Shown one piece after another: positions 4,122-40,352 of a stretch of DNA of 64,000 nucleotides. The stretch's first letter is position 1; each line of letters starts with the position of its first letter. The notes below the pieces were generated by a model. That model was not told the DNA's origin. It saw nothing but the letters and a program-made list of their open reading frames with translations, and searched no databases. Source of the DNA: Candidatus Sungiibacteriota bacterium. Its GTDB lineage: Bacteria > Patescibacteriota > Minisyncoccia > Sungbacterales > HO2-52-23. A program made the translations under genes and the position numbers. Location of the stretch: NCBI GenBank assembly GCA_016432465.1, contig CP066690.1, forward strand, positions 317,538 through 381,537, in the 5' to 3' direction.

Positions 4122-5312
4122 TCAGTTTGGAACAGGGGGAGTTTCGTTTTTTTCTTCCTTCAACACCCCAAGAGACATCCTGTGTTCTTGAGGATCAATC
4201 AATAAAATCTTAAACTGGTATTCTTTACCAAGTTCCAGCTCCGATCTCATTTTTATTTCTGTGCCAAACTCGGATATGTGAACTAAACCCTGAATTCCTG
4301 ACTCCAGCTGGGCAAAAGACCCAAAGGGGTTAAATTTGGTTACGCGGGCGCGAACCAAATCTCCTTTTTTATACTTTTCAGCTATTTTCACCCAAGGATC
4401 TTCTTTAAGCTGTTTTAAAGAAAGCGATACTTTATCCCCCTGAATGTCAATAATTTTTGCGCTGACCCTCTCCCCGAGTTTCAAAAACTCGCGCGGGTCT
4501 TCAACCAAAGACCAGTCAATTTCCGATACGTGAATCAGGCCCTCAAGTCCGGCCCCTTCGTCAAACCGCATAAACGCACCGAAGTCAACAACCCCCGTTA
4601 TTTCTCCTTCAACCACGTCTCCGATTTTATACTTAGCCAGGGCCGAACGCGTCCCTTCCAGGTCGCGACCGCGCTCGGTGAAAATTAACTTGTCTTCCGC
4701 CGGACTCAAATCAAGTATTTTTACCGTAAGCTTCTGGCCCACCAACTTTTGCAGTTCCTGAAAGATCCTCTCTTTGTCTCCGCCTTCTACCCGGGGGTAA
4801 TTTTTTGCGGAAAGCTGGGAGGCGGGAAGAAACCCCTTTACGCCGCGGGCCTCAAGTATGAGTCCTCCCTTATTGGCTTCCTGAACAGGCAGTTCTAAAA
4901 CCTCTCCCTGCTCCAGCATTTTTTTAAGATCGCTCCAGTTCTTCTCTGTCCCAGCCTCCTTCAGAGAAAGCTCAACATAGCCGTCTTCATTATCCGGATC
5001 AACTACTTTGACGCTTACTATATCGCCGGGTTTTAAATTTTTTATAATATCCTGCGCCGCATAATACTCGCGTCCGTACACAATGCCGCTACCCTGAAAA
5101 CCAATATCAATAAATAATCTGTTAGTCCGCCTTTCAATCACCGCCCCTTCTATAATATCGCCAGCCTTAAAAAGCCTGCTCCCCCCCACGGTTTTCAAAA
5201 GTAATTCCATGGGGTGTTTGCCGTGTAAAGACGTATCGGCGCTGGTTTTGTTATTATTTCCAGTTATCTCTACCATCTTGGTGAGTATACGGGATAAAAC
5301 TTTACCTAGCAA
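4122..5312 (-). CDS. rpsA: 30S ribosomal protein S1 (four S1 domains)
   Basis: Repeated S1-domain signatures (GDIIEGAVIE..., GDIVSVKVV..., GDVVEGEITGVVDFGAF..., GDLVRARVTKFNPFGSFAQL); exact start uncertain (several in-frame Met). Confidence 0.75.
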   Translation of the reverse strand: MLGKVLSRILTKMVEITGNNNKTSADTSLHGKHPMELLLKTVGGSRLFKAGDIIEGAVIERRTNRLFIDIGFQGSGIVYGREYYAAQDIIKNLKPGDIVSVKVVDPDNEDGYVELSLKEAGTEKNWSDLKKMLEQGEVLELPVQEANKGGLILEARGVKGFLPASQLSAKNYPRVEGGDKERIFQELQKLVGQKLTVKILDLSPAEDKLIFTERGRDLEGTRSALAKYKIGDVVEGEITGVVDFGAFMRFDEGAGLEGLIHVSEIDWSLVEDPREFLKLGERVSAKIIDIQGDKVSLSLKQLKEDPWVKIAEKYKKGDLVRARVTKFNPFGSFAQLESGIQGLVHISEFGTEIKMRSELELGKEYQFKILLIDPQEHRMSLGVLKEEKNETPPVPN

Positions 5313-6429: not shown

Positions 6430-9400
6430 ATGAACATAGGCAGAATTCAACAAAGAGAAATAGTGGAGGAGATGCGCGAGTCGTACCTTGACTACGCCAT
6501 GTCGGTCATTGTTGCTCGCGCGCTTCCCGACGTAAGAGACGGCCTGAAACCAGTGCACCGCCGGATTTTGTATTCAATGCATGAACTTGGCCTGACGCAT
6601 TCAGCAAAAACAAGAAAATGCGCAACGATTATCGGAGACGTATTGGGTAAATACCATCCTCATGGCGACGTGGCGGTTTATGATGCGCTGGTGCGCATGG
6701 CGCAAGAATTTTCACTTCGTTATCCCCTCGTTGAGGGGCAGGGAAATTTTGGTTGTTTCACGCAAGATACAAAAGTAAAACTCACCGATGGGCGGGATCT
6801 TTCATTCGGAGAGTTGGCGGAGGAACTCAAGACCGGAAAAAAGAATTATACATACACCGTGAACAGTCTTGGGCTTGTTGGTCTCGCGGAAATAAAACAT
6901 CCGCGTCTTACGAAAAAGAAGGCCCGTGTTATCACCGTTGTTTTAGATAACGGAGAAACAATACGCTGTACGCCCGATCACCGATTTATGATGCGAGATG
7001 GAACATATAAAGAAGCCGGGTCCCTTACGGAACATGACTCGTTGATGCCGCTCTACCAAAAACTATCAACGAAAACAGACAGACTGCAACGGGAAGGATA
7101 CCTATTGGTGTACCAGCCCAAAAAAGACGAATGGGTTCCGGCTCACCACTTGGCTGACAACTATAATCTGACGCGCCATATCTACCAAAAAAATGCCGGC
7201 CGCGTACGGCATCATGTGGACTTTAACAAACTCAACAATAACCCGGACAATGTCAAAAGGCTTGGCTGGGGCGAACATTGGAAAATCCACTATACACATG
7301 CGGCAAAACAACACCAAAAACCGGAATATCGGGAAAAAATCGCGTACGGGCGACGGATGTATTGGGCGGACGAGAAAAACAAAGAACACCACCGAAGCTT
7401 ACTTGCGGAGCGAAATCGCGTTAACTGGCAAAATCCCGAGTACCGAGAACGAATGAAGACATTCCTAAGTCAAGTCAACACCGAATATGTCAAGAAGCAT
7501 CCGGAAAAGAGGAACGAGTTTAGCGAGCGGGCAACACGAACGCTCAAACGCCTGTGGCAAGATCCAGAGTACCGGGCGACGATGCATCAAAAAATCATCA
7601 AAGGGAACAAAAATCATGTCAGCAACAAAACAGGAAAGCTAAAATTTTTAAACATTTGTAAAGAAACACTGAATCGTTTTCAGATACTTGAAGAAAAAGT
7701 ATATGAGCAAGCGCGTAAAGAGGTATATCCATATGGACGGGCGCCTTTATGGAAAACCGGATTGCAAAAATACTTTGCCGGAGATTCAAACCTTGTTCAT
7801 CAGGAATTGTTTAAAAATCACCGAGTTATAAGGATTGAGGACAAAAATGAGTACGAAGACGTTTTTGATCTAACCGTTGACGGAACTCATAATTTTGCGT
7901 TAGCAGCAGGTGTTTTTGTACATAATTCAATTGATGGGGACGCCGCCGCACACTATCGCTATACCGAAGCCCGCATGACCAGAATTGCCGAAGAGCTCCT
8001 GCGCGACATTGAAAAAAATACAGTTGAATTTCGCGACAACTACGATGCCACCCGTAAAGAACCCGTAGTACTTCCTGCGGCTCTTCCCGCTCTCCTGCTT
8101 AACGGAACTCTGGGAATAGCGGTGGGAATGGCAACCAGTATTCCTCCGCATAATCTTGGCGAGGTAACTGCGGCCCTGATCCACTTTAGCGACCACCCCA
8201 AGGCCTCGCTGGAGGATCTAATGGAGTTTATCAAGGGGCCGGACTTCCCCACCGGAGGAATAATTTTTGACGAAAAAGAAATCCGCGCCTCTTACGCATC
8301 GGGCAAGGGGGCCATTTTAAATCGTGGTGTGGCCGAGATTGAAGAGGGCGGCCGCGGAGCGCACCAAATTGTAATCACGGAGATTCCGTATCAGGTAAAC
8401 AAGGCCGAACTAATAGAAACCATGGCCGGTCTCGTGCAGGAAAAGAAAATTGAGGGCATACGAGATATTCGTGACGAATCCGACCGGCAAGGCATGCGCA
8501 TAGTGATTGAACTTAAACAAGATGCGCATCCGCAGAAGGTTTTAAACAATCTTTACCGGCACACTGACCTTGAAAAAACGTTTCACCTAAACATGCTTGC
8601 TTTGGTGGATGGGATTCAGCCGCAGGTACTCTCCATAAAAGAGGTGCTGGAAGAATTTCTGAAGCACCGAAACCAAGTAGTAACCCGCCGCACCAAGTTT
8701 GACCTGACCCGAACCCGCGAGCGCCTGCATATTTTAGAAGGACTGAAAAAGGCGCTGGACCACATTGACCGCGTAATTGAAACTATTAAAAAATCCAGAG
8801 ACCGCGATGAAGCGCGTGAAAATTTAATGAAGAAATTTGCCCTAACGGAGCTGCAGGCCGCCGCAATTCTAGAGATGAAACTGCAGACGCTGGCCGGTCT
8901 TGAACGACAAAAAATAGAGGATGAACTCAAAGAAAAGACGGCACTGGCCAAAAATCTTGAGGCCCTGCTGAAAGATCCTAAGAAAATCACAGATGTTATA
9001 AAAAGGGAATTGCACGAAGTAAGGGAAAAATACGGAGACGAGCGAAAAACTAAAGTCATAAAAACATCCCCCAAAGAACTTTCCGAGGAAGATTTGATTC
9101 CCGCAGAAGAGGTAGTGGTGGTGCTGACTCGCGGCGGTTACATAAAACGGATAAAACCGGAACAATACAAAATGCAGAAGCGCGGCGGTAAGGGGCTTAT
9201 CGGGATGGAGACCAAAGAGGAAGACATGGTGGAACATTTGCTAACCTGCAATACTCACTCCAACCTTCTTTTCTTCACCAGTTCCGGAAAGATTTATCAG
9301 GTTCGGACCTACGAAATTCCGGAAGGAAGTCGTATCTCCAAAGGCAAGGCAATCTTTAACTTTTTGGCGCTTTCCAGCAATGAGCAGATAAACTCCCTTC

Positions 9401-14143: not shown

Positions 14144-14250
14144 CTCGCCCCGTTAGAGATTTAGATTGGATATCCTGGTGCACGTTTAAGAACCGAAGTT
14201 AAAGGTATGACTTCTTTTTAGGGCTCACCCTACATCTCTAACGGGGCGAG
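14144..14250. repeat. MITE-like inverted-repeat element (copy Z) whose right arm abuts or overlaps the tRNA-Leu 5' end
   Basis: CTCGCCCCGTTAGAGAT (14144-14160) and ATCTCTAACGGGGCGAG (14234-14250) are exact reverse complements (17 bp) around a ~73-nt core; the same terminal motif recurs at 39025-39143, 39675-39776 and 34954-34967. Confidence 0.6.
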
Positions 14251-14327: not shown

Positions 14328-14367
14328 TTTGCCCGTGTAGTTTAACGGCAAAACAACCCCACCCTTT

Positions 14368-14440
14368 GCCCAAGTAGCTCAGTTGGTAGAGCACGATCAT
14401 GGTAAGATCGGGGTCCGCGGTTCGATTCCGCGCTTGGGCT
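14368..14440 (+). tRNA. tRNA-Thr (anticodon GGU)
   Basis: GCCCAAG-TA-GCTC-AGTTGGTA-GAGC-A-CGATC-ATGGTAA-GATCG-GGGTC-CGCGG-TTCGATT-CCGCG-CTTGGGC-T; all stems perfect. Confidence 0.85.
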
Positions 14441-14527
14441 GAACAAAGAGCGGGGTAAACGAGAGTTCAACTCTCTCCTCGGGCTCTGTTAAACATCGAG
14501 TGTTTAACATTAATTAATCAAATAGCT

Positions 14528-14656
14528 ATGGCCCAACTTAATCTCATACGATTGCAGTGTACTGTCTGCAAACGCATCAAAGCCGACGCGTCGGTCGGCT
14601 CCCCGACTTCACTATCGTATTTAAGATCGTGCGTCGGGGCTACTGGACTTAAATAA
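14528..14656 (+). pseudogene. 5' partial duplicate of rpmG (L33), frame-continued into unrelated sequence
   Basis: MAQLNLIRLQCTVCKR matches the L33 N-terminus MPQLNLIRLQCTTCKR of the intact gene 133 nt downstream (~75% nt identity over the first 48 nt); the second CxxC zinc-ribbon half is absent. Confidence 0.5.
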
Positions 14657-14660
14657 AAAT

Positions 14661-14822
14661 ATGCCGCAACTAAATTTAATAAGGTTACAGTGTACCACTT
14701 GTAAACGCTATAACTACTGGACGCGAAAAAATATCCGCAAAGTTGAGCGGAAACTTCAGTTTAAAAAATACTGCAAATGGGATCGGAAACATACACTACA
14801 TAAAGAAGCCAAGAAGACGTAG
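14661..14822 (+). CDS. rpmG: 50S ribosomal protein L33
   Basis: 53-aa ORF MPQLNLIRLQCTTCKRYNYWTRKNIRKVERKLQFKKYCKWDRKHTLHKEAKKT with CxxC...C L33 zinc-ribbon pattern; below the 60-aa cut-off of the ORF track. Confidence 0.8.
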   Translation: MPQLNLIRLQCTTCKRYNYWTRKNIRKVERKLQFKKYCKWDRKHTLHKEAKKT

Positions 14823-14836
14823 CTGTTCCTGAAAGT

Positions 14837-15001
14837 GGGTGCGTGGCGCAATTGGTGGCGCGTCGGTCTCCAATCCCGCCCTTTCATTGGGGGTGTAAGC
14901 TTAGCGGTAAACTGCGGGTCTCCAAAACCCGACTCCTCCGTTCGAATCGGAGCACCCCCGTTGAAAGGGCGGGACGAGCCCTGGCGCACCCGATACTAAA
15001 A
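14837..15001 (+). other. tRNA-like palindromic shell enclosing tRNA-Trp (5' half of a second tRNA-Trp-like sequence plus complementary 3' acceptor strand)
   Basis: GGGTGCG-TG-GCGC-AATTGGT-GGCGC-G-TCGGT-CTCCAAT (acceptor, perfect D-arm, anticodon stem/loop with CCA) at 14837-14884; far side CGCACCC (14995-15001) is complementary to GGGTGCG; inner 12-bp inverted repeat CCCGCCCTTTCA (14885-14896) / TGAAAGGGCGGG (14972-14983). Confidence 0.5.
14899..14970 (+). tRNA. tRNA-Trp (anticodon CCA)
   Basis: GGGGGTG-TA-AGCT-TAGCGGTAA-ACT-G-CGGGT-CTCCAAA-ACCCG-ACTC-CTCCG-TTCGAAT-CGGAG-CACCCCC-G; acceptor and anticodon stems perfect. Confidence 0.8.
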
Positions 15002-32246: not shown

Positions 32247-32888
32247 ATGGAACAGGTATTAGAAAAACTCTTTGAGTCGGTGCCAAGAGTCCGACTGCTT
32301 CGGCTTTTTATGCGAAATCCAGAGGCGGAGTTTACTTTTCCTGATATTGTAAAAAGAAGCCAACTACGCAGCCGTGCTCTCCGCGTAGAACTTAAAAAAC
32401 TTCTAAAAATCGGGCTTATTAAAAAGAAAAGGGCCATCCTCCGTTATGAAATTGTTAGGAAGTCACGATCTCGGAAAAAGCCACCCAAAATAATCATAAA
32501 AACCAAACGAACGCAGGTATTTTTAACTAATCAGGATTTCCCGTTTCTAAAAGAGCTTCAAGATTTAATCATAAGGGCCACTGCGGCTTCGCGTAAAAAA
32601 TTAATCAGACAAATAAAGGGGCTCGGCAAAATTAAACTTGCTGTATTGTCTGGAATATTTATAAATAGCGACAACTCCAGAACCGACCTACTTATTGTTG
32701 GAGATGGCATTAAAAAGTCGCTGATGGAGAAGTTTCTAGAGCAAGTAGAGTCAGAGCTTGGCAGATCGCTGCAATACACAGTTATGGACACGGCCGAGTT
32801 TAAATACCGGCTTGATATGTATGACCGATTCCTGCGGGATATTCTTGAATATCCGCACGATAAATTGATAAATAAGTTGCACGTGTAA
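32247..32888 (+). CDS. hypothetical protein (basic N-terminal region, possible wHTH)
   Basis: 213-aa ORF directly after rplL; Lys/Arg-rich centre; no confident domain call. Confidence 0.45.
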   Translation: MEQVLEKLFESVPRVRLLRLFMRNPEAEFTFPDIVKRSQLRSRALRVELKKLLKIGLIKKKRAILRYEIVRKSRSRKKPPKIIIKTKRTQVFLTNQDFPFLKELQDLIIRATAASRKKLIRQIKGLGKIKLAVLSGIFINSDNSRTDLLIVGDGIKKSLMEKFLEQVESELGRSLQYTVMDTAEFKYRLDMYDRFLRDILEYPHDKLINKLHV

Positions 32889-32892
32889 TTTC

Positions 32893-32929
32893 AAAATCGT
32901 CCCGGCCGGCCGGGACGATTTTGAAATTG
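32893..32929 (+). terminator. Rho-independent terminator
   Basis: AAAATCGTCCCGGCC/GGCCGGGACGATTTT perfect 15-bp stem. Confidence 0.7.
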
Positions 32930-32983
32930 CTTTTTAAAAATATCGGGCTAAAATATAGTCAGTGTGAAAACCGAATTCACACT

Positions 32984-33055
32984 GGGCGACTAGCTCAGTG
33001 GTAGAGCGTTCCGTTCACATCGGAAAGATCACAGGTTCGATCCCTGTGTCGCCCA
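32984..33055 (+). tRNA. tRNA-Val (anticodon CAC)
   Basis: GGGCGAC-TA-GCTC-AGTGGTA-GAGC-G-TTCCG-TTCACAT-CGGAA-AGATC-ACAGG-TTCGATC-CCTGT-GTCGCCC-A. Confidence 0.85.
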
Positions 33056-33211
33056 CACTTTAGAAAAACGCAAATTATCAAGGTCCGCCTCGCTTCGCTC
33101 GGCGATTTTATCGTAAGGTTCTGCCCACACAAAACGGAACTGGCGGTCGTGCGGTAAAAGAAAATTTTTCTATTATCAAAAACAGTTGAAATGGCCGACT
33201 TTTTGTTGCTA

Positions 33212-33240
33212 TTGACATAATATATAAAATTTGCTATAAT
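33212..33240 (+). promoter_or_regulatory. consensus sigma70 promoter for 33363..33956
   Basis: TTGACA (33212-33217), 17 nt, TATAAT (33235-33240). Confidence 0.65.
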
Positions 33241-33278
33241 ATAAACAGTGGGATTGCTCTTTGTTGTTGTCAATTTTT

Positions 33279-33331
33279 CCTTACAACACATTAATGCGGA
33301 AAATATATTTATGTGTTAATGTGTTGTAAGG
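33279..33331 (+). promoter_or_regulatory. perfect 16-bp inverted repeat in the 5' leader (operator or RNA hairpin)
   Basis: CCTTACAACACATTAA (33279-33294), 21-nt AT-rich loop, TTAATGTGTTGTAAGG (33316-33331). Confidence 0.55.
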
Positions 33332-33362
33332 AAATAAAAAAAACTTACGAAAGGAGGACACA

Positions 33363-33956
33363 ATGGGTGAGCATTACATGGCGGATGGTTTCTACCAAGG
33401 ACGAATCACTTCCATCAAACGGGCGGAGAGTAGGAACGTTTACGAGGACGAACATCGAAAGCAACTCGTTGTTTCAGTAGACGGCGTGCCCTTTCTGGTT
33501 CACAAGAGGGACGTTTGCCGCCCACTGAGACGTGGTGCGCTCGTGGTGTTCACGGCCAACGGCGGCTGGATCTCGTACGACCCATACAAGTTCGATCAGA
33601 AGTGGCATTACCGCATCGAGTGGCTGGCGGAGGAGGCCAAGAAAAGGAACGTGAAAGGTTCCCGGCATGGTTTCAAGGTGTGTGTCTTTGACCAGCTTCA
33701 AGTTCCTGTGCCGCACACCGATGTCTGGAAGAAAGGTCCATTCATGTCCGAGAAATTGAAGCCCGACACGGTTTTCCGTCCAGCTCTCAAGTTCCCCACG
33801 GACATGAATCGGCGTGACCAGAAATTCTTCCAGGGAACCATGCGCGCTATCGCAGCTGGCGTCCCCATCAACCCCCTTCCCGAAAGCGCCTACCGAGAGA
33901 GGTGTCCGCACTATCCGTTTTCGCCGTTCAAGGCGATTTGCGGAGATTGTGCATAG
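33363..33956 (+). CDS. hypothetical protein (appears GC-richer than surroundings; tRNA-Val-adjacent cassette gene A)
   Basis: RBS GAAAGGAGGACACA then ATG 33363; 197 aa; C-terminal CPHYPFSPFKAICGDC. Confidence 0.55.
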   Translation: MGEHYMADGFYQGRITSIKRAESRNVYEDEHRKQLVVSVDGVPFLVHKRDVCRPLRRGALVVFTANGGWISYDPYKFDQKWHYRIEWLAEEAKKRNVKGSRHGFKVCVFDQLQVPVPHTDVWKKGPFMSEKLKPDTVFRPALKFPTDMNRRDQKFFQGTMRAIAAGVPINPLPESAYRERCPHYPFSPFKAICGDCA

Positions 33957-34205
33957 CACCAACGACGGGTGGTCGAGCAAGACTCGATCACCCGTTTTCA
34001 ATTATACGAATTTGCCGCCAAAGATAAAATCTGATAGATTTTACTCGTGAGCAAGGCTCACGAAAAAACTTTAAATTGTCAAAAATCAGTCTGTCGCCGC
34101 CGAATTTTTTGCCCCCTCATTTTGCGGCTTTGCCGCAAAATGCGTTCGGACTATTTCCAGAATACTCCAGTGTGAATTCGAAATAGATAAACCCCAGGAA
34201 GAGCG

Positions 34206-34252
34206 CTTGATTCACATTCAAGGGGTCGTAGGTTCGACACCTGCATCGCGCA
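34206..34252 (+). other. tRNA-Val-like 3' half fragment (anticodon arm with CAC, T-arm, 3' acceptor strand; no acceptor 5' strand or D-arm)
   Basis: CTTGA-TTCACAT-TCAAG-GGGTC-GTAGG-TTCGACA-CCTGC-ATCGCGC-A; same architecture as the second half of tRNA-Val at 32984 but with different stem sequences. Confidence 0.5.
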
Positions 34253-34339
34253 GTAGTGGATTCTTAGTGCCAGCGCCGCGCTAAAAATATTTAGATTTCA
34301 GAAATTTTGTTGGTTCTAACCACAAATCCCCTCCCCCCA

Positions 34340-34368
34340 TTGACATCAGCGCCTAAAAAGAGTAATAT
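34340..34368 (+). promoter_or_regulatory. sigma70-like promoter for 34420..34878
   Basis: TTGACA (34340-34345), 17 nt, TAATAT (34363-34368). Confidence 0.55.
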
Positions 34369-34419
34369 GAAAATAGGAATGGGGCAAAGGCCTACAGTTA
34401 GGGCTCAGAGGAGGCACAG

Positions 34420-34878
34420 ATGCGTATTTTGAAAACAAGGTTCCGAGTACAAGACATTCAGAGGCTAAAAGAACGTGGAATTGTTCATAACTGCCACCTT
34501 CGTGGCACACCTTTTGACGAGGCGTGGAATGCCGCATACAACGACATGGTGGATATCAACGTCTGGTTTCCAAAGGACAAAGTGCCCGTGTGGATGAATG
34601 TGCGTGTTGACATGCAAGATGGGGTGCCGTGGCTCGTTAATGTGGTTTTCAAAATACCCGCGGCTATTCGGGACATTGAAGGACTTGCCAATGAATTGGC
34701 AGGCCAATTTAGTCTCAGCAAATACAGGGTTTCAATCAGCGCATATCACGCCAATCCTGATCTACAAAGTTTTGGTTCTTTCGGACGAGTTCTCCAAATT
34801 AACTCAAGTAACGAAAACCCCAAGAAACTTCTCTCGTTTTTGAGAGCGTTGGAAAAAAAACTACAGGCCGTTTCGTAG
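34420..34878 (+). CDS. hypothetical protein (cassette gene B)
   Basis: 152-aa ORF; no recognisable motifs. Confidence 0.5.
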   Translation: MRILKTRFRVQDIQRLKERGIVHNCHLRGTPFDEAWNAAYNDMVDINVWFPKDKVPVWMNVRVDMQDGVPWLVNVVFKIPAAIRDIEGLANELAGQFSLSKYRVSISAYHANPDLQSFGSFGRVLQINSSNENPKKLLSFLRALEKKLQAVS

Positions 34879-34953
34879 CACATCTAGTTGCCGCGCAAGC
34901 GGCCTTTTTTATTTAAAATCGAGGTTCGTCGTCTATAAAAGTGCATAAGAAGT

Positions 34954-35005
34954 CTAACGGGGCGAGCATTGCAAGGGTCACAGGTTCAAATCCTGTACTG
35001 CCCAT
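34954..35005 (+). other. chimeric tRNA fragment: tRNA-Leu 5' leader/acceptor motif fused to a tRNA-Val-like T-arm and 3' acceptor
   Basis: TCTAACGGGGCGAG (identical to 14237-14250 upstream of tRNA-Leu) + CATTGCAAG-GGTC-ACAGG-TTCAAAT-CCTGT-ACTGCCC-A; T-stem ACAGG/CCTGT matches the tRNA-Val T-stem. Confidence 0.45.
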
Positions 35006-35010
35006 TTTAA

Positions 35011-35037
35011 AACGGCAATCAAGACGATTGCCGTTTA
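35011..35037. terminator. bidirectional terminator
   Basis: AAACGGCAATC-aagac-GATTGCCGTTT, 11-bp stem with A/T runs on both sides. Confidence 0.6.
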
Positions 35038-35405
35038 CTTAAAATTAAGTCTGTTTTCATGTTGCCCCGCGGATTTATATCTATACGCACATAAAGAGAT
35101 TGGGGATCAAGTTCCTGCCAAAGAGTCTCAAAAATCTCGTCAGCTAGTTTCTCGTAACCAATGTATCTGTCCCGAAAACTATTAAACCAAAGTTTTAACG
35201 ACCTTAATTCCAAAAATCTTATTTTGGGAACATATCTGATGGTAATTCTCGCAAAATCGGGATACCCCTGTTCCTGACACTTCCAAGTAAGCTCTGGGAA
35301 GCATACACGGATCACTGGTGTATTTTGTACCTTTAATTTAAAGGATCTCGGCCTGGCTTCACTAATTTCTTTATCTCCGCGCAATTCTGACATCTTTAGG
35401 CCCAC
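35019..35405 (-). CDS. queF: NADPH-dependent 7-cyano-7-deazaguanine reductase (type I QueF-like)
   Basis: QueF motif ELRSLKLWFNSFRD (E-S/L-K-S/A-hy-K-hy-Y/F/W) and WKCQEQGYPDF resembling the QueF catalytic-Cys segment (CPxTGQPDF). Confidence 0.6.
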   Translation of the reverse strand: MGLKMSELRGDKEISEARPRSFKLKVQNTPVIRVCFPELTWKCQEQGYPDFARITIRYVPKIRFLELRSLKLWFNSFRDRYIGYEKLADEIFETLWQELDPQSLYVRIDINPRGNMKTDLILSKRQSS

Positions 35406-35456
35406 CGAAGGTGCTATGGGTTTATTGAAGTATAAAACATCGTTATTGTCTAGTTT

Positions 35457-36095
35457 TTAACAGCCACCTTCTAGAAAGTATGGCCTTAATCTATCTCTAG
35501 TGCTTGACCAAAGCGTAAAATCAATACCCATATCCATTGTTTTCCAGTTTGCCCTTTCCGGTCTCCCTACTAATTTTGCCAAAACCAAACGCAGATATTG
35601 GCGCGGGATTTTTTCCGGATCGCTTACCGGAAACACAAACATTTTACCAAGACGGTCAGTACAAAAAATGTAATATCGGTGAGATTCTCGTACCTTACGC
35701 AGATCATTAAGAGAAGCGGTTTCCTTACCTTCACCCAAACTTTTCGCAACATAAGACAAAACGTCAACATGTGTAGGTACCACATGCAAATGAGCGTGCT
35801 TGATGGTTTGTCCAACATCACCATGCTCAAAAAAGACCGGCCGTCTGCCTAAAACCACATACTCATACATATATTCTTCTTTCATCGCATCTAAAAGTCG
35901 TCTCAACCAATTGGAAACTGCTATCATCTCCTCATCACTTAAATCACCGAGACAGATCTTATGCGTTTTAGGAATAATAAGTGTATAGCCATCCTCAATT
36001 TGGCCAACCGACGCAATAATATATAAGTAATCATTTTCAAAGATCAATCGTTCTACAAAAGAATTTCTGTCGCAAAACACGCACTGGTTTTCCAC
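35457..36095 (-). CDS. HIT-family (histidine triad) hydrolase-like protein
   Basis: N-terminal CVFC, histidine triad HAHLHVVP; GTG start. Confidence 0.55.
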   Translation of the reverse strand: MENQCVFCDRNSFVERLIFENDYLYIIASVGQIEDGYTLIIPKTHKICLGDLSDEEMIAVSNWLRRLLDAMKEEYMYEYVVLGRRPVFFEHGDVGQTIKHAHLHVVPTHVDVLSYVAKSLGEGKETASLNDLRKVRESHRYYIFCTDRLGKMFVFPVSDPEKIPRQYLRLVLAKLVGRPERANWKTMDMGIDFTLWSSTRDRLRPYFLEGGC

Positions 36096-36216
36096 TTCAA
36101 GTCCCTATTTCGCCGTAACTTAGCTTATGATAGACTGATAGTTACATAAGTCAATGTTTAAAAATAATAAATTATATAATTGTCCAATAAACTGTCCATT
36201 ACCTGTTAAAGACATA

Positions 36217-36654
36217 ATGGACAAACTGTTAATTTCTATCGGACAGTTTCATGTTTTACAAAACATGCCTTCTGTAAAACGCCAATTTGGAGATATCGGA
36301 GAAAAAGAAGCGATTTGTTATTTAAAGAATAGTGGGTATCAAATACTAGATACAAACTATAGGGTCAAGAATCTGGGAGAATTAGATATCATTGGAGAAA
36401 AAAATAATAAGCTATTCTTTTTTGAGGTTAAAACAAGAGACGTGAAACATGAGAGTAACTTCCCCCACTGGACGAGTATAACCCCAAAAAAGAAAAGAAA
36501 TCTTAAGCGAATCTGTAACCTATACTTGGTAGACAAACAGTTTCCATCTAACAAAGAATGGCAGGTGGACGCAATTTTTGTTAAAGTTGATTTTAATACT
36601 AAGAATAGCTTTATAGAACATCTTGAAAATATACTCTGTGAAGAATATTATTAA
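36217..36654 (+). CDS. YraN/UPF0102-family endonuclease-like protein
   Basis: GEKEAICYLKNSGYQILDTNYRV...GELDIIGEKNNKLFFFEVKTR matches the UPF0102 core; region looks AT-rich. Confidence 0.5.
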   Translation: MDKLLISIGQFHVLQNMPSVKRQFGDIGEKEAICYLKNSGYQILDTNYRVKNLGELDIIGEKNNKLFFFEVKTRDVKHESNFPHWTSITPKKKRNLKRICNLYLVDKQFPSNKEWQVDAIFVKVDFNTKNSFIEHLENILCEEYY

Positions 36655-38450: not shown

Positions 38451-38553
38451 TCAAAAAAATAACCCCTTAGATATTGGGTTATTTTTTATACTGGTGAGGG
38501 GAAATAGAACCGCATAAACAAAAAAGCAAAACTTAATTTGCTTCTAAAAATGT

Positions 38554-38583
38554 TGCAGGGGGCTTCTGTGGTGGAAGCCCCCT
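38554..38583 (-). terminator. terminator for 38604..38861
   Basis: AGGGGGCTTC-tgtggtg-GAAGCCCCCT, 10-bp GC-rich stem. Confidence 0.55.
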
Positions 38584-38603
38584 ACTTCTTGGATCGCGTG
38601 GCG

Positions 38604-38861
38604 TTAGTAACCGAGATGGTCCGTCATTGTCCGAAGGACCGTGTCAGGGTCTGTGTCAGGCAAATAGAAACCTACCGCCTGCGGAGCACCATTGAGAACA
38701 TCTTCGGAGGGTTCTCCTAAGAGCTCCCGTAAGTCTTCTGCCTCTAGTCGGGGAGCCCACACCATGCAATACCCAAAGTGGTCCACGATGACAGGACCTT
38801 CTCCAGCCGCAAGCGAAGCCACGATTATACTGCTACTAACTTCATCGGTCACGATCTTCAT
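38604..38861 (-). CDS. hypothetical protein (appears GC-richer than surroundings)
   Basis: RBS AAAGGAGGAGTCAG then ATG at 38861 (MKIVTDEVSSS...); 85 aa. Confidence 0.5.
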   Translation of the reverse strand: MKIVTDEVSSSIIVASLAAGEGPVIVDHFGYCMVWAPRLEAEDLRELLGEPSEDVLNGAPQAVGFYLPDTDPDTVLRTMTDHLGY

Positions 38862-39024
38862 CTGACTCCTCCTTTCAGTTGTGGGCCCGTGGGCCTGGAA
38901 CATTACTAATCATAACATTTAGACCATTAAAAGTCAAGTTTTTTGAGTTAAGCCAATAAATCACGCGAAATTTGGAATAGCGAATAATCCGGGCCCTATA
39001 CTCCAACAGGTTCTAACATCATTC

Positions 39025-39143
39025 ATCCCGTTAGAAATAGGACGCGGACGGAGTTCTTTACATTTTACTTGTCATTTTTGGGCGAAAGTTACCCTGGAAA
39101 CAAAAGCCGTGTTTGGATACGCGTCCGCGATTTCTAACGGGAT
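39025..39143. repeat. MITE-like inverted-repeat element (copy X)
   Basis: ATCCCGTTAGAAATAGGACGCGGACG ... CGTCCGCGATTTCTAACGGGAT, imperfect ~22-bp terminal inverted repeats. Confidence 0.55.
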
Positions 39144-39429
39144 TCACTAACCCGCTTGTAACCGAAAATAAACCCTCCTACCTACTAACCACAGGGGCAC
39201 GAATAAAAATAACAAGAGTATTGCTGTAAATTCTCCTTGCTATCATCTCAAACTTTTCTGGTTAGTAAGTGGGGGGTAAACAGAAAGAATATGGAAAGTG
39301 AGAAATACCCATAGATACGAGGTTTTTGTTACGAACAGTGAAAAATTGTAACCGCCCGCCTTGACACATAATGAGTAATATGCAACTAATTTATTTAGTT
39401 CCCCATACCACTACATAAGGAGTAAACCA

Positions 39430-39621
39430 ATGGTAGAGATTCATAGACATCCGGTATGGCCGTATAGAGTTGTTTATGGTGAAAAACTTCGTGCAGGTGA
39501 CACCATTCAGTCTGACGATGTATACGATTCAACCTCGGGAAATTGGGAAAAGGCCCCATGTCCAGGTGTCATCTTACAAGAAGGTTGTAACACTTATTGG
39601 GTACGTCCATCACCTACTTAA
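39430..39621 (+). CDS. small hypothetical protein
   Basis: RBS TAAGGAGTAAACCA then ATG 39430; 63 aa; followed by a hairpin + T-run terminator (39636-39670). Confidence 0.5.
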   Translation: MVEIHRHPVWPYRVVYGEKLRAGDTIQSDDVYDSTSGNWEKAPCPGVILQEGCNTYWVRPSPT

Positions 39622-39674
39622 CAAGGTGGTGTGATTCTTCATCTATCCGTCAAGTGATCTTGGCGGTCTTTTTT

Positions 39675-39776
39675 ATCCCGTTAGAGATTTAGGTAATACC
39701 GAAATAATTAATACTCGCACTCCGCCGTCCTTATCGATGTCATAGAGAGCATTGCGTTCCGCATCTCTAACGGGAT
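39675..39776. repeat. MITE-like inverted-repeat element (copy Y)
   Basis: ATCCCGTTAGAGAT ... ATCTCTAACGGGAT, perfect 14-bp terminal inverted repeats around a ~74-nt core. Confidence 0.55.
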
Positions 39777-39869
39777 TTATTCAAAACTAGGCCTATACCC
39801 GCCCCTTGACATTACTTTATGACCGAACTATTATTGTAATATAAATTATTACAGTAACTGAAAACTATT

Positions 39870-40085
39870 ATGCGAAACATAATTAACCTTTCGTTGCCGC
39901 AGAAGATGACAGAAGTTGTAGAGGAAAATGTTAAAAAGGGCCATTTTTCCAGCAAAAGCGAATTTTTCCGCATGCTCCTTCGTCTCTGGATGGAAGGGAA
40001 ACTTGCGGAAGAACTTGAGGAAAGCCGTAAGGAACTGCGCGGAGGCAAAGGCAAACTACTGAAATCGTTTAAAAACTTCCGATAA
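39870..40085 (+). CDS. type II antitoxin, ribbon-helix-helix (CopG/ParD-like)
   Basis: 71 aa, RHH-like N-terminus (ISLPQKMTEVVEENVKKGHFSSKSEFFRMLLRLW); 9-nt gap to a RelE/ParE-like toxin gene; an inverted repeat TTGTAATA-taaat-TATTACAG sits upstream. Confidence 0.6.
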   Translation: MRNIINLSLPQKMTEVVEENVKKGHFSSKSEFFRMLLRLWMEGKLAEELEESRKELRGGKGKLLKSFKNFR

Positions 40086-40094
40086 GACGACCGT

Positions 40095-40352
40095 ATGCGG
40101 ATTTATTATTCCTCAAAATTTGAACGCGAATATAGAAAACTACCGAAGGAAATCAAGATAGTAGCCGAAGAAAAAGGCGTTATTTTCAGGAAAAATCCGT
40201 TTGACCCCCGGCTTGATACGCATAAATTACACGGTCGCCTGAAAGAGTACTGGGCTTTTTCTATTGTAGACAAATACCGGATTATTTTTGAGTTTGCAGA
40301 AAAAGACATAATCTGGTTTCATTCCGTTGGCGACCATTCAATTTATCAGTAG
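40095..40352 (+). CDS. type II toxin, RelE/ParE family
   Basis: 85 aa; MRIYYSSKFEREYRKLPKEIK...LHGRLKEYWAFSIVDKYRIIFEF...IIWFHSVGDHSIY matches the RelE/ParE fold signature. Confidence 0.6.
   Translation: MRIYYSSKFEREYRKLPKEIKIVAEEKGVIFRKNPFDPRLDTHKLHGRLKEYWAFSIVDKYRIIFEFAEKDIIWFHSVGDHSIYQ

Follow-up and report, generated by a model that had tools for sequence, protein, structure and literature searches.

Nested tRNA-Val relics beside single-gene cassettes in a Sungiibacteriota genome suggest serial replacement of a tRNA gene from within

The tRNA-Val locus and its relics

In a metagenome-assembled genome of Candidatus Sungiibacteriota, which belongs to the Parcubacteria of the Candidate Phyla Radiation (CPR), the gene for tRNA-Val(CAC) is followed by two small genes and two pieces of sequence that resemble tRNA 3′ halves. 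The window analyzed here, a stretch of 64,000 nt from a contig of 923 kb, has this intact gene at 32984-33056 on the forward strand, where it was called by ARAGORN and scored 69.2 bits on the Rfam tRNA model, as an initial annotation made from the sequence alone had proposed. Downstream of it come gene A (HYW89_01805), a first tRNA-like fragment (frag1), gene B (HYW89_01810), a second fragment (frag2), and a queF-like and a HIT-family gene (Table 1). The initial annotation took the fragments as att-site copies left by integration at the tRNA 3′ end and the tract as a mini-island. That this is a foreign, tRNA-linked hotspot with tRNA relics has held, while the mechanism and the nature given to the fragments have not. 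It is probable, as argued below, that tRNA-Val genes lie nested at this locus, having been serially replaced by hairpin-ended cassettes that carry a tRNA, with foreign gene cassettes lying at the boundaries of the layers.

What, then, are the two fragments? With an nhmmer profile built from 62 tRNA-Val(CAC) genes, both were recognized in the orientation of the resident gene, frag1 over profile positions 17-72 (E=4.2e-11; 34197-34252) and frag2 over positions 35-72 (E=3.1e-5; 34967-35004). Their description as direct-orientation relics of tRNA-Val therefore stands, although frag1 begins further 5′ than the 47-nt piece first delimited (34206-34252) and reaches into the D stem. Covariance-model scoring had been named as a means to expose a spurious similarity; on the Rfam tRNA model frag1 reached 19.1 bits (34184-34244, model positions 8-63), below the gathering score, and frag2 had no match in the Rfam scan, while both are significant with the profile. 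The T-loop motif GGTTCRANNCC occurs six times in the 64 kb against 1.26 expected, and the six occurrences are four real tRNAs, frag1 and frag2. Frag1 is identical to the resident tRNA-Val at 36 of 53 positions, while it shares 44-46 of 53-55 aligned positions with alleles of the type found in loci L092, L084 and L020; frag2 agrees with the 3′ half of an intact tRNA-Val in L027 at 37 of 38 positions and with the resident gene at 28 of 38. Over 38 nt, the fragments are 66% and 74% identical to the resident tRNA-Val, and the differences between them and the alleles of other genomes preserve the stems. Judged by sequence, frag1 and frag2 are genuine partial tRNA-Val(CAC) genes of other alleles, and because they are closer to the tRNA-Val alleles of other genomes, they are not duplicated att copies of the resident 3′ end.

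Integrative elements were reportedly sorted by Williams in 2002 into classes by their sublocation in tRNA genes, and a classical explanation of such a tract would be tandem accretion: elements with an integrase integrated serially in the 3′ portion of tRNA-Val, a 3′ att copy being displaced every time, and the integrases and most of the cargo decayed. Direct-orientation 3′ relics downstream of an intact tRNA, foreign genes between them and a window without 5′ relics all suit this explanation, and in the tycheposons of Prochlorococcus partial tRNAs separate degenerate elements in tRNA-seeded islands in just this way (bioRxiv 10.1101/2020.12.28.424599). Like such islands, the window has its full-length tRNA in the proximal position, direct-orientation partial tRNAs between foreign genes, hypervariable content and degenerate elements without an integrase. 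Unlike them, the partial copies are other alleles, as the low identities above tell, 5′ halves are found upstream too, and the inserted unit has inverted repeats at its ends and a whole tRNA within. It is to be noted that no tyrosine or serine recombinase was found in the island, in agreement with the initial annotation, which had seen no integrase in these 3.1 kb, or among 10 ORFs (open reading frames) of candidate size elsewhere in the window. In relatives, moreover, the relics have no cargo and are accompanied by inverted repeats and by 5′ relics that match, and a before/after pair described below has a whole tRNA inserted inside a gene. For these reasons we consider tandem accretion unlikely.

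The relics of the window are accompanied by repeats. A perfect 14-bp inverted repeat, absent from the initial annotation, brackets tRNA-Val and gene A: the sequences at 32972-32985 (CGAATTCACACTGG) and 34167-34180 (CCAGTGTGAATTCG) are complementary at 14 of 14 positions and are the sole two copies in the window. Analogous repeats with the CGAAT/ATTCG core in common surround tRNA-Val in L015 and L032, and CCAGTGTGAATTCG, the spacer 5′ of frag1 and frag1 itself align with the sequence immediately 3′ of tRNA-Val in these two loci. Frag2 aligns together with its junction with the relics of L023, L065, L097 and L107. The repeat that adjoins it (TCTAACGGGG) forms the ends of hairpins of an abundant family, which has target duplications of 4 bp (TTCA, TTGA, TGAA) and resembles miniature inverted-repeat transposable elements (MITEs). 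The initial annotation had seen frag2 as fused to a tRNA-Leu leader motif, and indeed the exact 14-mer TCTAACGGGGCGAG recurs at 14237-14250, in the 5′ flank and acceptor stem of tRNA-Leu, with its complement at 14144-14157, but the motif is the terminal inverted repeat of this family.

Nested tRNA genes in related genomes

With the helix-turn-helix (HTH) protein encoded just upstream of tRNA-Val (32247-32888) as an anchor, 80 orthologous loci were fetched, and a conserved order of L10, L7/L12, the HTH anchor, tRNA-Val(CAC), UPF0102, tRNA-Pro and tRNA-Gly was found. Ten relatives (L015, L023, L028, L032, L036, L065, L075, L076, L080 and L084) have tRNA-Val-like 3′ pieces directly 3′ of tRNA-Val and lack genes A and B. 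According to the initial annotation, relatives with the two genes and without the fragments would have spoken against it; what was found is the reverse, fragments without the genes. How common are such relics? In a census of 61 loci with tRNA-Val(CAC), an unbiased choice made through the neighbouring HTH protein, at least one relic was present in 12 (20%) at a cut-off of E<=0.01. Their orientation follows a rule: 3′-part relics are downstream in 11 of 11 cases and 5′-part relics upstream in 5 of 5, all of them on the tRNA strand and none discordant. The sequences that join relics to the intact gene are complementary on both sides, and inverted repeats flank 15 of 157 tRNAs, compared with 1 of 157 in the control.

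The cleanest nest is that of L080, which reads GCGCGCATAGCTCAGCTGGTTAGAGCGTTGCA TTCA / CCCCGTTACAAGTCCTAT (intact tRNA-Val) ATGAGACTTGTAACGGGG / TTCA CATTGCAAAGGTCCCTGGTTCGAGTCCAGGTGCGCGCA. If the insert is cut out in silico, what remains is a perfect outer tRNA-Val, which ARAGORN then calls; the TTCA/TTCA duplication that flanks the insert corresponds to nt 32-35 of the anticodon loop TTCACAT. Among outer tRNAs restored in this manner only those of L080 and L076 were counted, and the constructs for L036, L023 and the tRNA-Thr of the window, which contained supplied bases, were discounted. Two or three layers of tRNA-Val are found in L021, L028, L036, L065 and L075, and the same nested architecture is present at tRNA-Pro (L066, L016, L075 and L028), tRNA-Thr, tRNA-Trp and tRNA-Leu.

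A pair of states before and after insertion is also at hand. Scanning metagenomes for the frag2-type junction gave 13 loci, ten of which hold tRNA-Val, and all ten have a nest; the junction of frag2 is seen in L023, L065 and L095-L107. An intact tRNA-Val with the acceptor sequence GGGCAGT is present in L100, L104 and L106, while L098 and L105, whose flanks are the same as those of L106 (1 mismatch in ~565 nt), have a tRNA-Val split in the anticodon loop by an insert of 116-118 nt. The filled loci read ...CTGCATT / TTCACCCCGTTGCAATTTTAA (tRNA-Val GGACACT...) TAGGCCTAAATTGCAACGGGGCAAG / CATTGCAG..., that is, arm, tRNA-Val, arm. L106 and L098 are thus the empty and the filled form of a site with otherwise identical flanks, a presence/absence polymorphism as seen with mobile DNA. 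As the junction of the L098 type cannot be spliced back to TTCACAT, the outer gene would be dead and the inner gene would replace it. Integration at the tRNA 3′ end, which the initial annotation had supposed, does not fit: because relatives carry 5′ halves upstream and complementary repeats at the junctions, a complete tRNA cassette has to be placed inside the old gene. Alleles do not keep their order from genome to genome, and one with the acceptor GGGCGCA is an outer relic in L098 and the innermost intact gene in L028, which implies a pool of tRNA cassettes invading one another. A literature search found no account of tRNA genes that are replaced in nested fashion or overwritten from inside.

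Could these arrangements come about in other ways? Two tRNA-Val-like genes stand in tandem in L093, and one may imagine that tRNA-Val was duplicated locally, that deletions and decay followed, and that unrelated genes were inserted later. However, such a history would not yield the rule of 5′ parts upstream and 3′ parts downstream, complementary junction arms, 4-bp duplications or the before/after insertion, and the alleles of the relics are closer to genes of other genomes than to the resident one, so that we give this history hardly any credence. Another explanation is that the relics are functional RNA, selected structures that serve, for example, as signals for processing by RNase P/Z or for stabilization where the transcripts of A and B have their 3′ ends, or else that the nested genes are intron-like precursors from which two tRNAs are spliced. 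The pairing of the T arm and anticodon arm is kept with compensatory differences among loci, and leader and trailer arms are complementary, as this explanation would have it. Distinct alleles that were once functional explain the compensatory differences too, though; of many relics a part or the partner half is missing, the junction TT-TTCA...CAAG-CAT cannot splice back to TTCACAT, relics of relatives stand without adjacent genes, and beyond tRNA no known RNA family in Rfam matches. A functional role of this kind seems to us very improbable.

Two further nests lie elsewhere in the window. The tRNA-Thr(GGT) gene at 14368-14440 is nested in an older tRNA-Thr, whose relics at 14331-14360 (5′, GCCCGTGTAGTTTAACGGCAAAAC) and 14457-14486 (3′, TAAACGAGAGTTCAACTCTCTCCTCGGGCT) are joined to it by the complementary arms CCCCACCCTTT and AAAGAGCGGGG and match an intact tRNA-Thr allele of L036. 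The tRNA-Trp(CCA) gene at 14888-14961 lies inside an older tRNA-Trp (14835-14995), the 5′ part of which runs through the anticodon loop (GGGTGCGTGGCGCAATTGGTGGCGCGTCGGTCTCCAA); the arms TCCCGCCCTTTCA and TGAAAGGGCGGGA match perfectly over 13 bp, and the 3′ relic is cut short, with no T arm.

A MITE-like hairpin family

The hairpin family that adjoins frag2 is abundant. Six exact matches to CCCGTTAGAR are present in the window against about 0.24 expected by our own estimate from the window length, and they make three convergent pairs (14149/14236, 39027/39132 and 39677/39765), that is, three full copies; a seventh arm, solo and with one mismatch, is at frag2. Over the CPR loci, arms of the type [C/T]CCCG... 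enclose 55-125 nt, and dozens of copies that share the terminal inverted repeats were found in related loci and in some viral contigs, with related hairpins, some nested in one another, in a few IMG/VR contigs. Because 21 copies have identical 4-bp flanks (seen as TTGA, TGAA, TTCA, TCCA, TTTA, TAAA, CAAG and CTCG, and including the copy of L080 that carries tRNA-Val, with TTCA), the CCCGTTAGA family, to judge from these flanks, behaves like a MITE with 4-bp target duplication, some members of which carry a tRNA. A literature search found no description of MITEs in CPR. With MITEs and other non-autonomous transposons of the DDE type, the family shares units of ~100-125 bp, terminal inverted repeats ([C/T]CCCGTTAGA...), 4-bp target duplications, many copies per genome and the lack of coding capacity. 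The empty and filled sites of L106 and L098 add a presence/absence polymorphism of the kind that marks MITEs. Unlike them, some copies here carry a tRNA predicted to be functional, land inside the cognate tRNA gene and replace it.

Other hairpins of the window and of related contigs should be mentioned here. An element of 107 nt at 14144-14250 (CTCGCCCCGTTAGAG...77 nt...CTCTAACGGGGCGAG) abuts tRNA-Leu(TAG), whose acceptor stem takes its first bases from the right arm of the element. A second island of small genes lies downstream of tRNA-Gly (38451-40352) and holds hairpin elements at 39024-39143 (TTCA/TTCA flanks) and 39678-39775 (TTTA/TTTA flanks), which set off a 63-aa gene that has a promoter of its own (39430-39621) from an apparent pair, judged by inspection of the sequence, of RHH antitoxin and RelE-like toxin (39870-40085 and 40095-40352). 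At 14528-14822, two tandem L33-like ORFs both start with MxQLNLIRLQCTxCKR; by eye, the first (14528-14656) is interrupted by a CCCCGAC...GTCGGGG hairpin and ends early, and the second (14661-14822) looks intact, so that this may be another disrupted gene beside its replacement copy. A second hairpin family (CCCCGACG...CGTCGGGG, AGCCGAC...GTCGGCT) sits in the D loops of tRNA-Val genes or relics of L027, L028, L084 and L093, and a hairpin of this type is nested in the IMG/VR contigs L145/L154. Finally, a CCCCGTTAGAA...TTCTAACGGGG hairpin, with the tail CAAGCATTGCA included, surrounds short non-tRNA inserts in L101 (2739-2808) and L103 (2183-2240 and 6630-6750), contigs that are GC-richer and in which a tRNA-Val relic was not detected; this suggests that the hairpin family is wider than Parcubacteria.

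Proposed replacement of a tRNA gene from within

How would such a stack be built? In this Sungiibacteriota/Parcubacteria lineage, a small cassette with a whole tRNA gene between two matching inverted-repeat arms would insert into the anticodon loop or the D loop of a resident gene of the same isotype. The insertion would kill the old tRNA gene, and the tRNA of the cassette itself would substitute for it; the old 5′ half would be left upstream and the old 3′ half downstream, and repeated events would stack the relics. Read in this manner, frag2 would be the 3′ half of the oldest tRNA-Val of the window, joined to the terminal repeat of the hairpin family, and frag1 that of the next tRNA-Val, broken in the D loop, while the matching 5′ relics would have been lost. 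The present tRNA-Val, which starts at 32984, would be the youngest layer, at the centre of the stack. Compared with L015, gene A is lodged between this tRNA and the right repeat that belongs to it, gene B beyond frag1 and before the following right repeat, and queF and HIT after frag2, so that each module lies directly 3′ of a tRNA-Val 3′ end. Cassettes may be moved by a transposase-like enzyme acting in trans, or they may spread secondarily by homologous recombination through the tRNA halves, which the recurrence of the junction TT-TTCA...CAAG-CAT suggests. The tRNA-Val(CAC) gene is probably single-copy, which would make the insertions self-rescuing.

Several observations weigh against this scheme of nested replacement. 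No 5′ relic is detectable upstream of the tRNA-Val of the window, and because of this the nested reading of the locus rests on homology to relatives, all sequences compared being metagenome assemblies. The window is also the sole nest with cargo between the tRNA and its right repeat. The commonest nest junction, TT-TTCA/.../CAAG-CAT, has no clean target duplication, and the fixed length of 4 bp seen for the 21 copies above is found neither at this TTCA/CAAG junction nor at the single-armed frag2 junction of the window; many nest junctions lack a clean duplication, unlike those of MITEs. The arms of the hairpin family differ between copies and yet stay complementary, and such co-variation in place of conservation is unusual for terminal repeats bound by a transposase. 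As for the enzyme, no recombinase family is represented among the sole ORFs of 33057-36153 (A, B, queF and HIT) or among the 10 candidate-size ORFs elsewhere in the window, and in about 1.9 Mb of fetched loci no pair of repeats 0.4-4 kb apart encloses a transposase-like ORF, as an autonomous copy or parent transposon would.

It is also worth setting the nests beside other systems in which tRNA genes or small cassettes are interrupted or assembled. Group I introns in tRNA anticodon loops are documented in Patescibacteria, in an account that does not mention nested genes or relics (PMC13011429). The inserts described here resemble them in that they lie in the anticodon loop in the same phylum and that different alleles show the same junctions repeatedly, as would be possible if they spread by recombination through the exon halves on either side. 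Unlike group I introns, the insert of ~117 nt is too short for a ribozyme, no intron family reaches the Rfam gathering score, and splicing cannot restore the exon (TTCACAT); instead, the internal replacement gene is predicted to rescue the function. Split, permuted or multi-intron tRNA genes exist in archaea such as Nanoarchaeum and Thermoproteales. The halves of archaeal split tRNAs also stand apart in the DNA and have complementary junction sequences, while here an intact paralogue stands between the halves, which decay, and the loop is not restored at the junction; no splicing endonuclease is known in this bacterial lineage. With integron cassettes, the modules have in common that they are single-gene units in arrays with short imperfect palindromes or boundary motifs between them. 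Unlike integron cassettes, they have their own promoters and terminators, IntI and attI were not found, and the boundary hairpins CCCGTTAGA...TCTAACGGG have a GTT...AAC polarity, opposite to that of the integron attC (RYYYAAC...GTTRRRY). Integron attC, Tn3-type ends and IS200/IS605 hairpins were considered, as were the dinucleotide crossover of serine recombinases and the 7-bp overlap of tyrosine recombinases, and none of these was supported by the junctions.

What would follow if the scheme is true? Parcubacteria may harbour self-rescuing, selfish miniature cassettes whose sole cargo is a tRNA, which destroy and substitute a presumably single-copy cognate tRNA gene and occasionally ferry genes such as A and B; for this wider proposition we see the chances as evenly balanced. 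Essential tRNA genes in ultra-small genomes would then be repeatedly overwritten by mobile cassettes bringing the replacement with them, and would not be stable heirlooms. To kill a gene and replace it at once would be a new strategy of a selfish element: such cassettes would be impossible to lose, tRNA alleles would turn over rapidly between genomes, and stacks of relics would be left. This would account for the marked variety of tRNA-Val sequences in CPR genomes that are related, and for the tRNA pseudo-fragments that confuse annotation, and would help to explain why the flanks of tRNA genes are hotspots of gene gain in organisms largely without classical integrative elements. With defined ends, a defined target and a before/after pair, the cassettes would be a concrete system that can be tested.

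The hotspot and genes A and B

Nothing but a tRNA-Val relic of 53 nt and an intergenic stretch separates tRNA-Val from UPF0102 in L015, the closest relative (69% identity of the anchor), and the sequence upstream of its UPF0102 gene aligns with the window from about 36190 onward. This is an empty site, and the synteny is kept in many loci. Because L015 lacks the genes and because neither queF nor HIT had a tblastn match in any of the 80 orthologous loci, the whole of 33057-36150 (3.1 kb with A, B, queF and HIT) is a lineage-specific stretch in a hypervariable hotspot. The initial annotation was right on a lineage-specific insertion next to the tRNA, but the empty site that it imagined, with tRNA-Val directly followed by queF and HIT, does not exist; these two genes are non-syntenic, and the conserved flank is UPF0102. 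For the exact queF product, no record was found. The same gap is occupied in other genomes by unrelated genes: PNPOx and a LAGLIDADG endonuclease in L016, a serine hydrolase in L024, an orphan and a NUDIX gene in L066, and an orphan in L086. The LAGLIDADG gene of L016 (8339-8791, reverse strand; Pfam E=1.1e-6) is free-standing and encodes a single domain; a possible role would be that of a nuclease acting in trans for local rearrangements, and since it occurs at a single locus we conclude nothing from it.

Both genes are equipped with a promoter of their own, as the initial annotation had noted, and its reading of gene A as GC-richer agrees with a GC content of 0.549 and a third-position value (GC3) of 0.662 compared with 0.462 for the window. 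The consensus promoter of gene A (12/12) and the promoter of gene B (10/12) were likewise seen there, and the inverted repeat in the leader of gene A, which had been given as 16 bp, is a perfect one of 19 bp, for which Rfam returns only spurious miRNA-like matches. Gene A matches itself alone among 5.8e9 proteins and in a full HMMER scan of 1.84e9 cluster representatives, has no Pfam, PHROG or NCBIfam match, and gave an AlphaFold2 (AF2) model with a pLDDT of 36, which is unusable. A viral origin was looked for, and no relatives of gene A or gene B were found in IMG/VR. The first ~220 nt after tRNA-Val, with the terminator hairpin and the promoter, have a homologous counterpart 3′ of the tRNA-Val of the distant genome L086. 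The exact 19-mer GCCTCGCTTCGCTCGGCGA is common to both, and the mean column identity is 74% when the tRNA and the module are aligned together; in L086, the shared promoter drives another gene.

Homologues of gene B are found in unrelated contexts, next to cysS and corA in L006 and downstream of tRNA-Arg in L008-L013. The homology between the window and L006 is limited to the part from the -35 element through the terminator, and therefore gene B travels as a cassette of promoter, gene and terminator. In the window, the gene B cassette has boundary motifs of the GAGGTTCTAAC type on either side. Three copies of GAGGTTCTAAC mark off the cassettes of L066, and L006 has the motif 3′ of the gene B homologue and the variant GAGGTTCTCC 5′ of the cassette. 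The stretch of L066 that resembles the degenerate boundary module of the window (5104-5122) sits just 5′ of the NUDIX cassette. As a motif enriched over the genome, GGTTCTAAC was rejected, for it is not enriched at one mismatch, and it is retained solely as a motif of local cassette boundaries. Genes A and B are self-sufficient cassettes of foreign origin with promoter, gene and terminator. Did they come as cargo of the tRNA elements, or later? That they were cargo we regard as somewhat doubtful, and we would give even chances to their insertion after the tRNA elements. In a search for strain variants without A or B, the Logan contigs of the window species ended at the tRNA/palindrome region.

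Table 1. Features of the tRNA-Val region, in coordinates of the window
Feature	Position	Strand	Remarks
Left inverted repeat CGAATTCACACTGG	32972-32985	+	Abuts tRNA-Val and overlaps its first 2 nt; within local leader hairpin 32960-32984
tRNA-Val(CAC)	32984-33056	+	Intact resident gene
Terminator-like hairpin and T-run	33090-33105	+	Terminator scan; 3′ of tRNA-Val; opens ~220-nt terminator-and-promoter module
Gene A promoter	33212-33240	+	Consensus sigma-70, TTGACA-17-TATAAT, 12/12, with TG
Gene A leader hairpin	33276-33334	+	Perfect 19-bp inverted repeat, arms 33276-33294 and 33316-33334
Gene A	33363-33956	+	197-aa ORFan, GC-rich
Right inverted repeat CCAGTGTGAATTCG	34167-34180	+	Partner of 32972-32985; followed by spacer homologous to right end of the element in L015 and L032
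Frag1	34197-34252	+	3′ relic of older tRNA-Val(CAC) allele, D-stem 3′ strand to acceptor 3′ end; break in D loop
Boundary motif GGTTCTAAC	34312-34320	+	Exact match; upstream of gene B promoter
Gene B promoter	34340-34368	+	TTGACA-17-TAATAT, 10/12
Gene B	34420-34878	+	152-aa protein, small family
Gene B intrinsic terminator	34887-34903	+	Terminator scan; kept in L006 cassette
Degenerate boundary module GAGGTTC..GTCGTCTATAAAAGTGCA	34921-34945	+	19/19 match to L066 5104-5122
TCTAACGGGGCGAG	34953-34966	+	Right terminal inverted repeat and tip of CCCGTTAGA hairpin family; forms junction with frag2
Frag2	34967-35004	+	3′ relic of putative oldest tRNA-Val(CAC) layer, nt 36 of anticodon loop to acceptor 3′ end
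queF-like gene	35019-35405	-	Pfam QueF 1.4e-20
HIT-family gene	35457-36095	-	Pfam HIT 7.9e-9
Conserved flank	36190-36654	+	GGACA-rich upstream region and UPF0102 gene; aligns with L015 and L028; true start ~36262

Minor observations

A perfect palindrome of 42 bp (21-bp arms without a loop) at 32887-32928 terminates the HTH gene, and short-read contigs of the window species all break at this palindrome or within the tRNA region. The motif GGTTCTAAC is also present at 39009, in the island downstream of tRNA-Gly. In L008-L013, which belong to another organism, a direct repeat of ~60 nt (CCTCAAACTCYAAAGAYTCTGTTGGGGTAAKGTAGCAACTACYCA..., for example L009 733-795 and 1508-1562) precedes the gene B homologue and each neighbouring orphan and contains a small hairpin with a compensatory change; the boundary repeats of the gene B homologues in L009 and L010 were also considered as tRNA-like, which Rfam scoring rejected.

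Upstream of UPF0102 (36190-36260 in the window, and in L015, L017, L022, L030 and L031), several conserved GGACA/TGTCC repeats may be an operator for a regulator. In L024, tRNA-Pro (8318-8388, reverse strand) is inverted with respect to all other loci, with UPF0102 at 7738-8127 on the forward strand. A pair of repeats, CCCCGCACTAAA and TTTAGTGCGGGG, at 7593-8528 encloses UPF0102 and the inverted tRNA-Pro, and a perfect inverted repeat of 28 bp pairs the leader of tRNA-Pro with a site ~600 nt from the tRNA, which suggests an inversion between the arms of hairpin elements.

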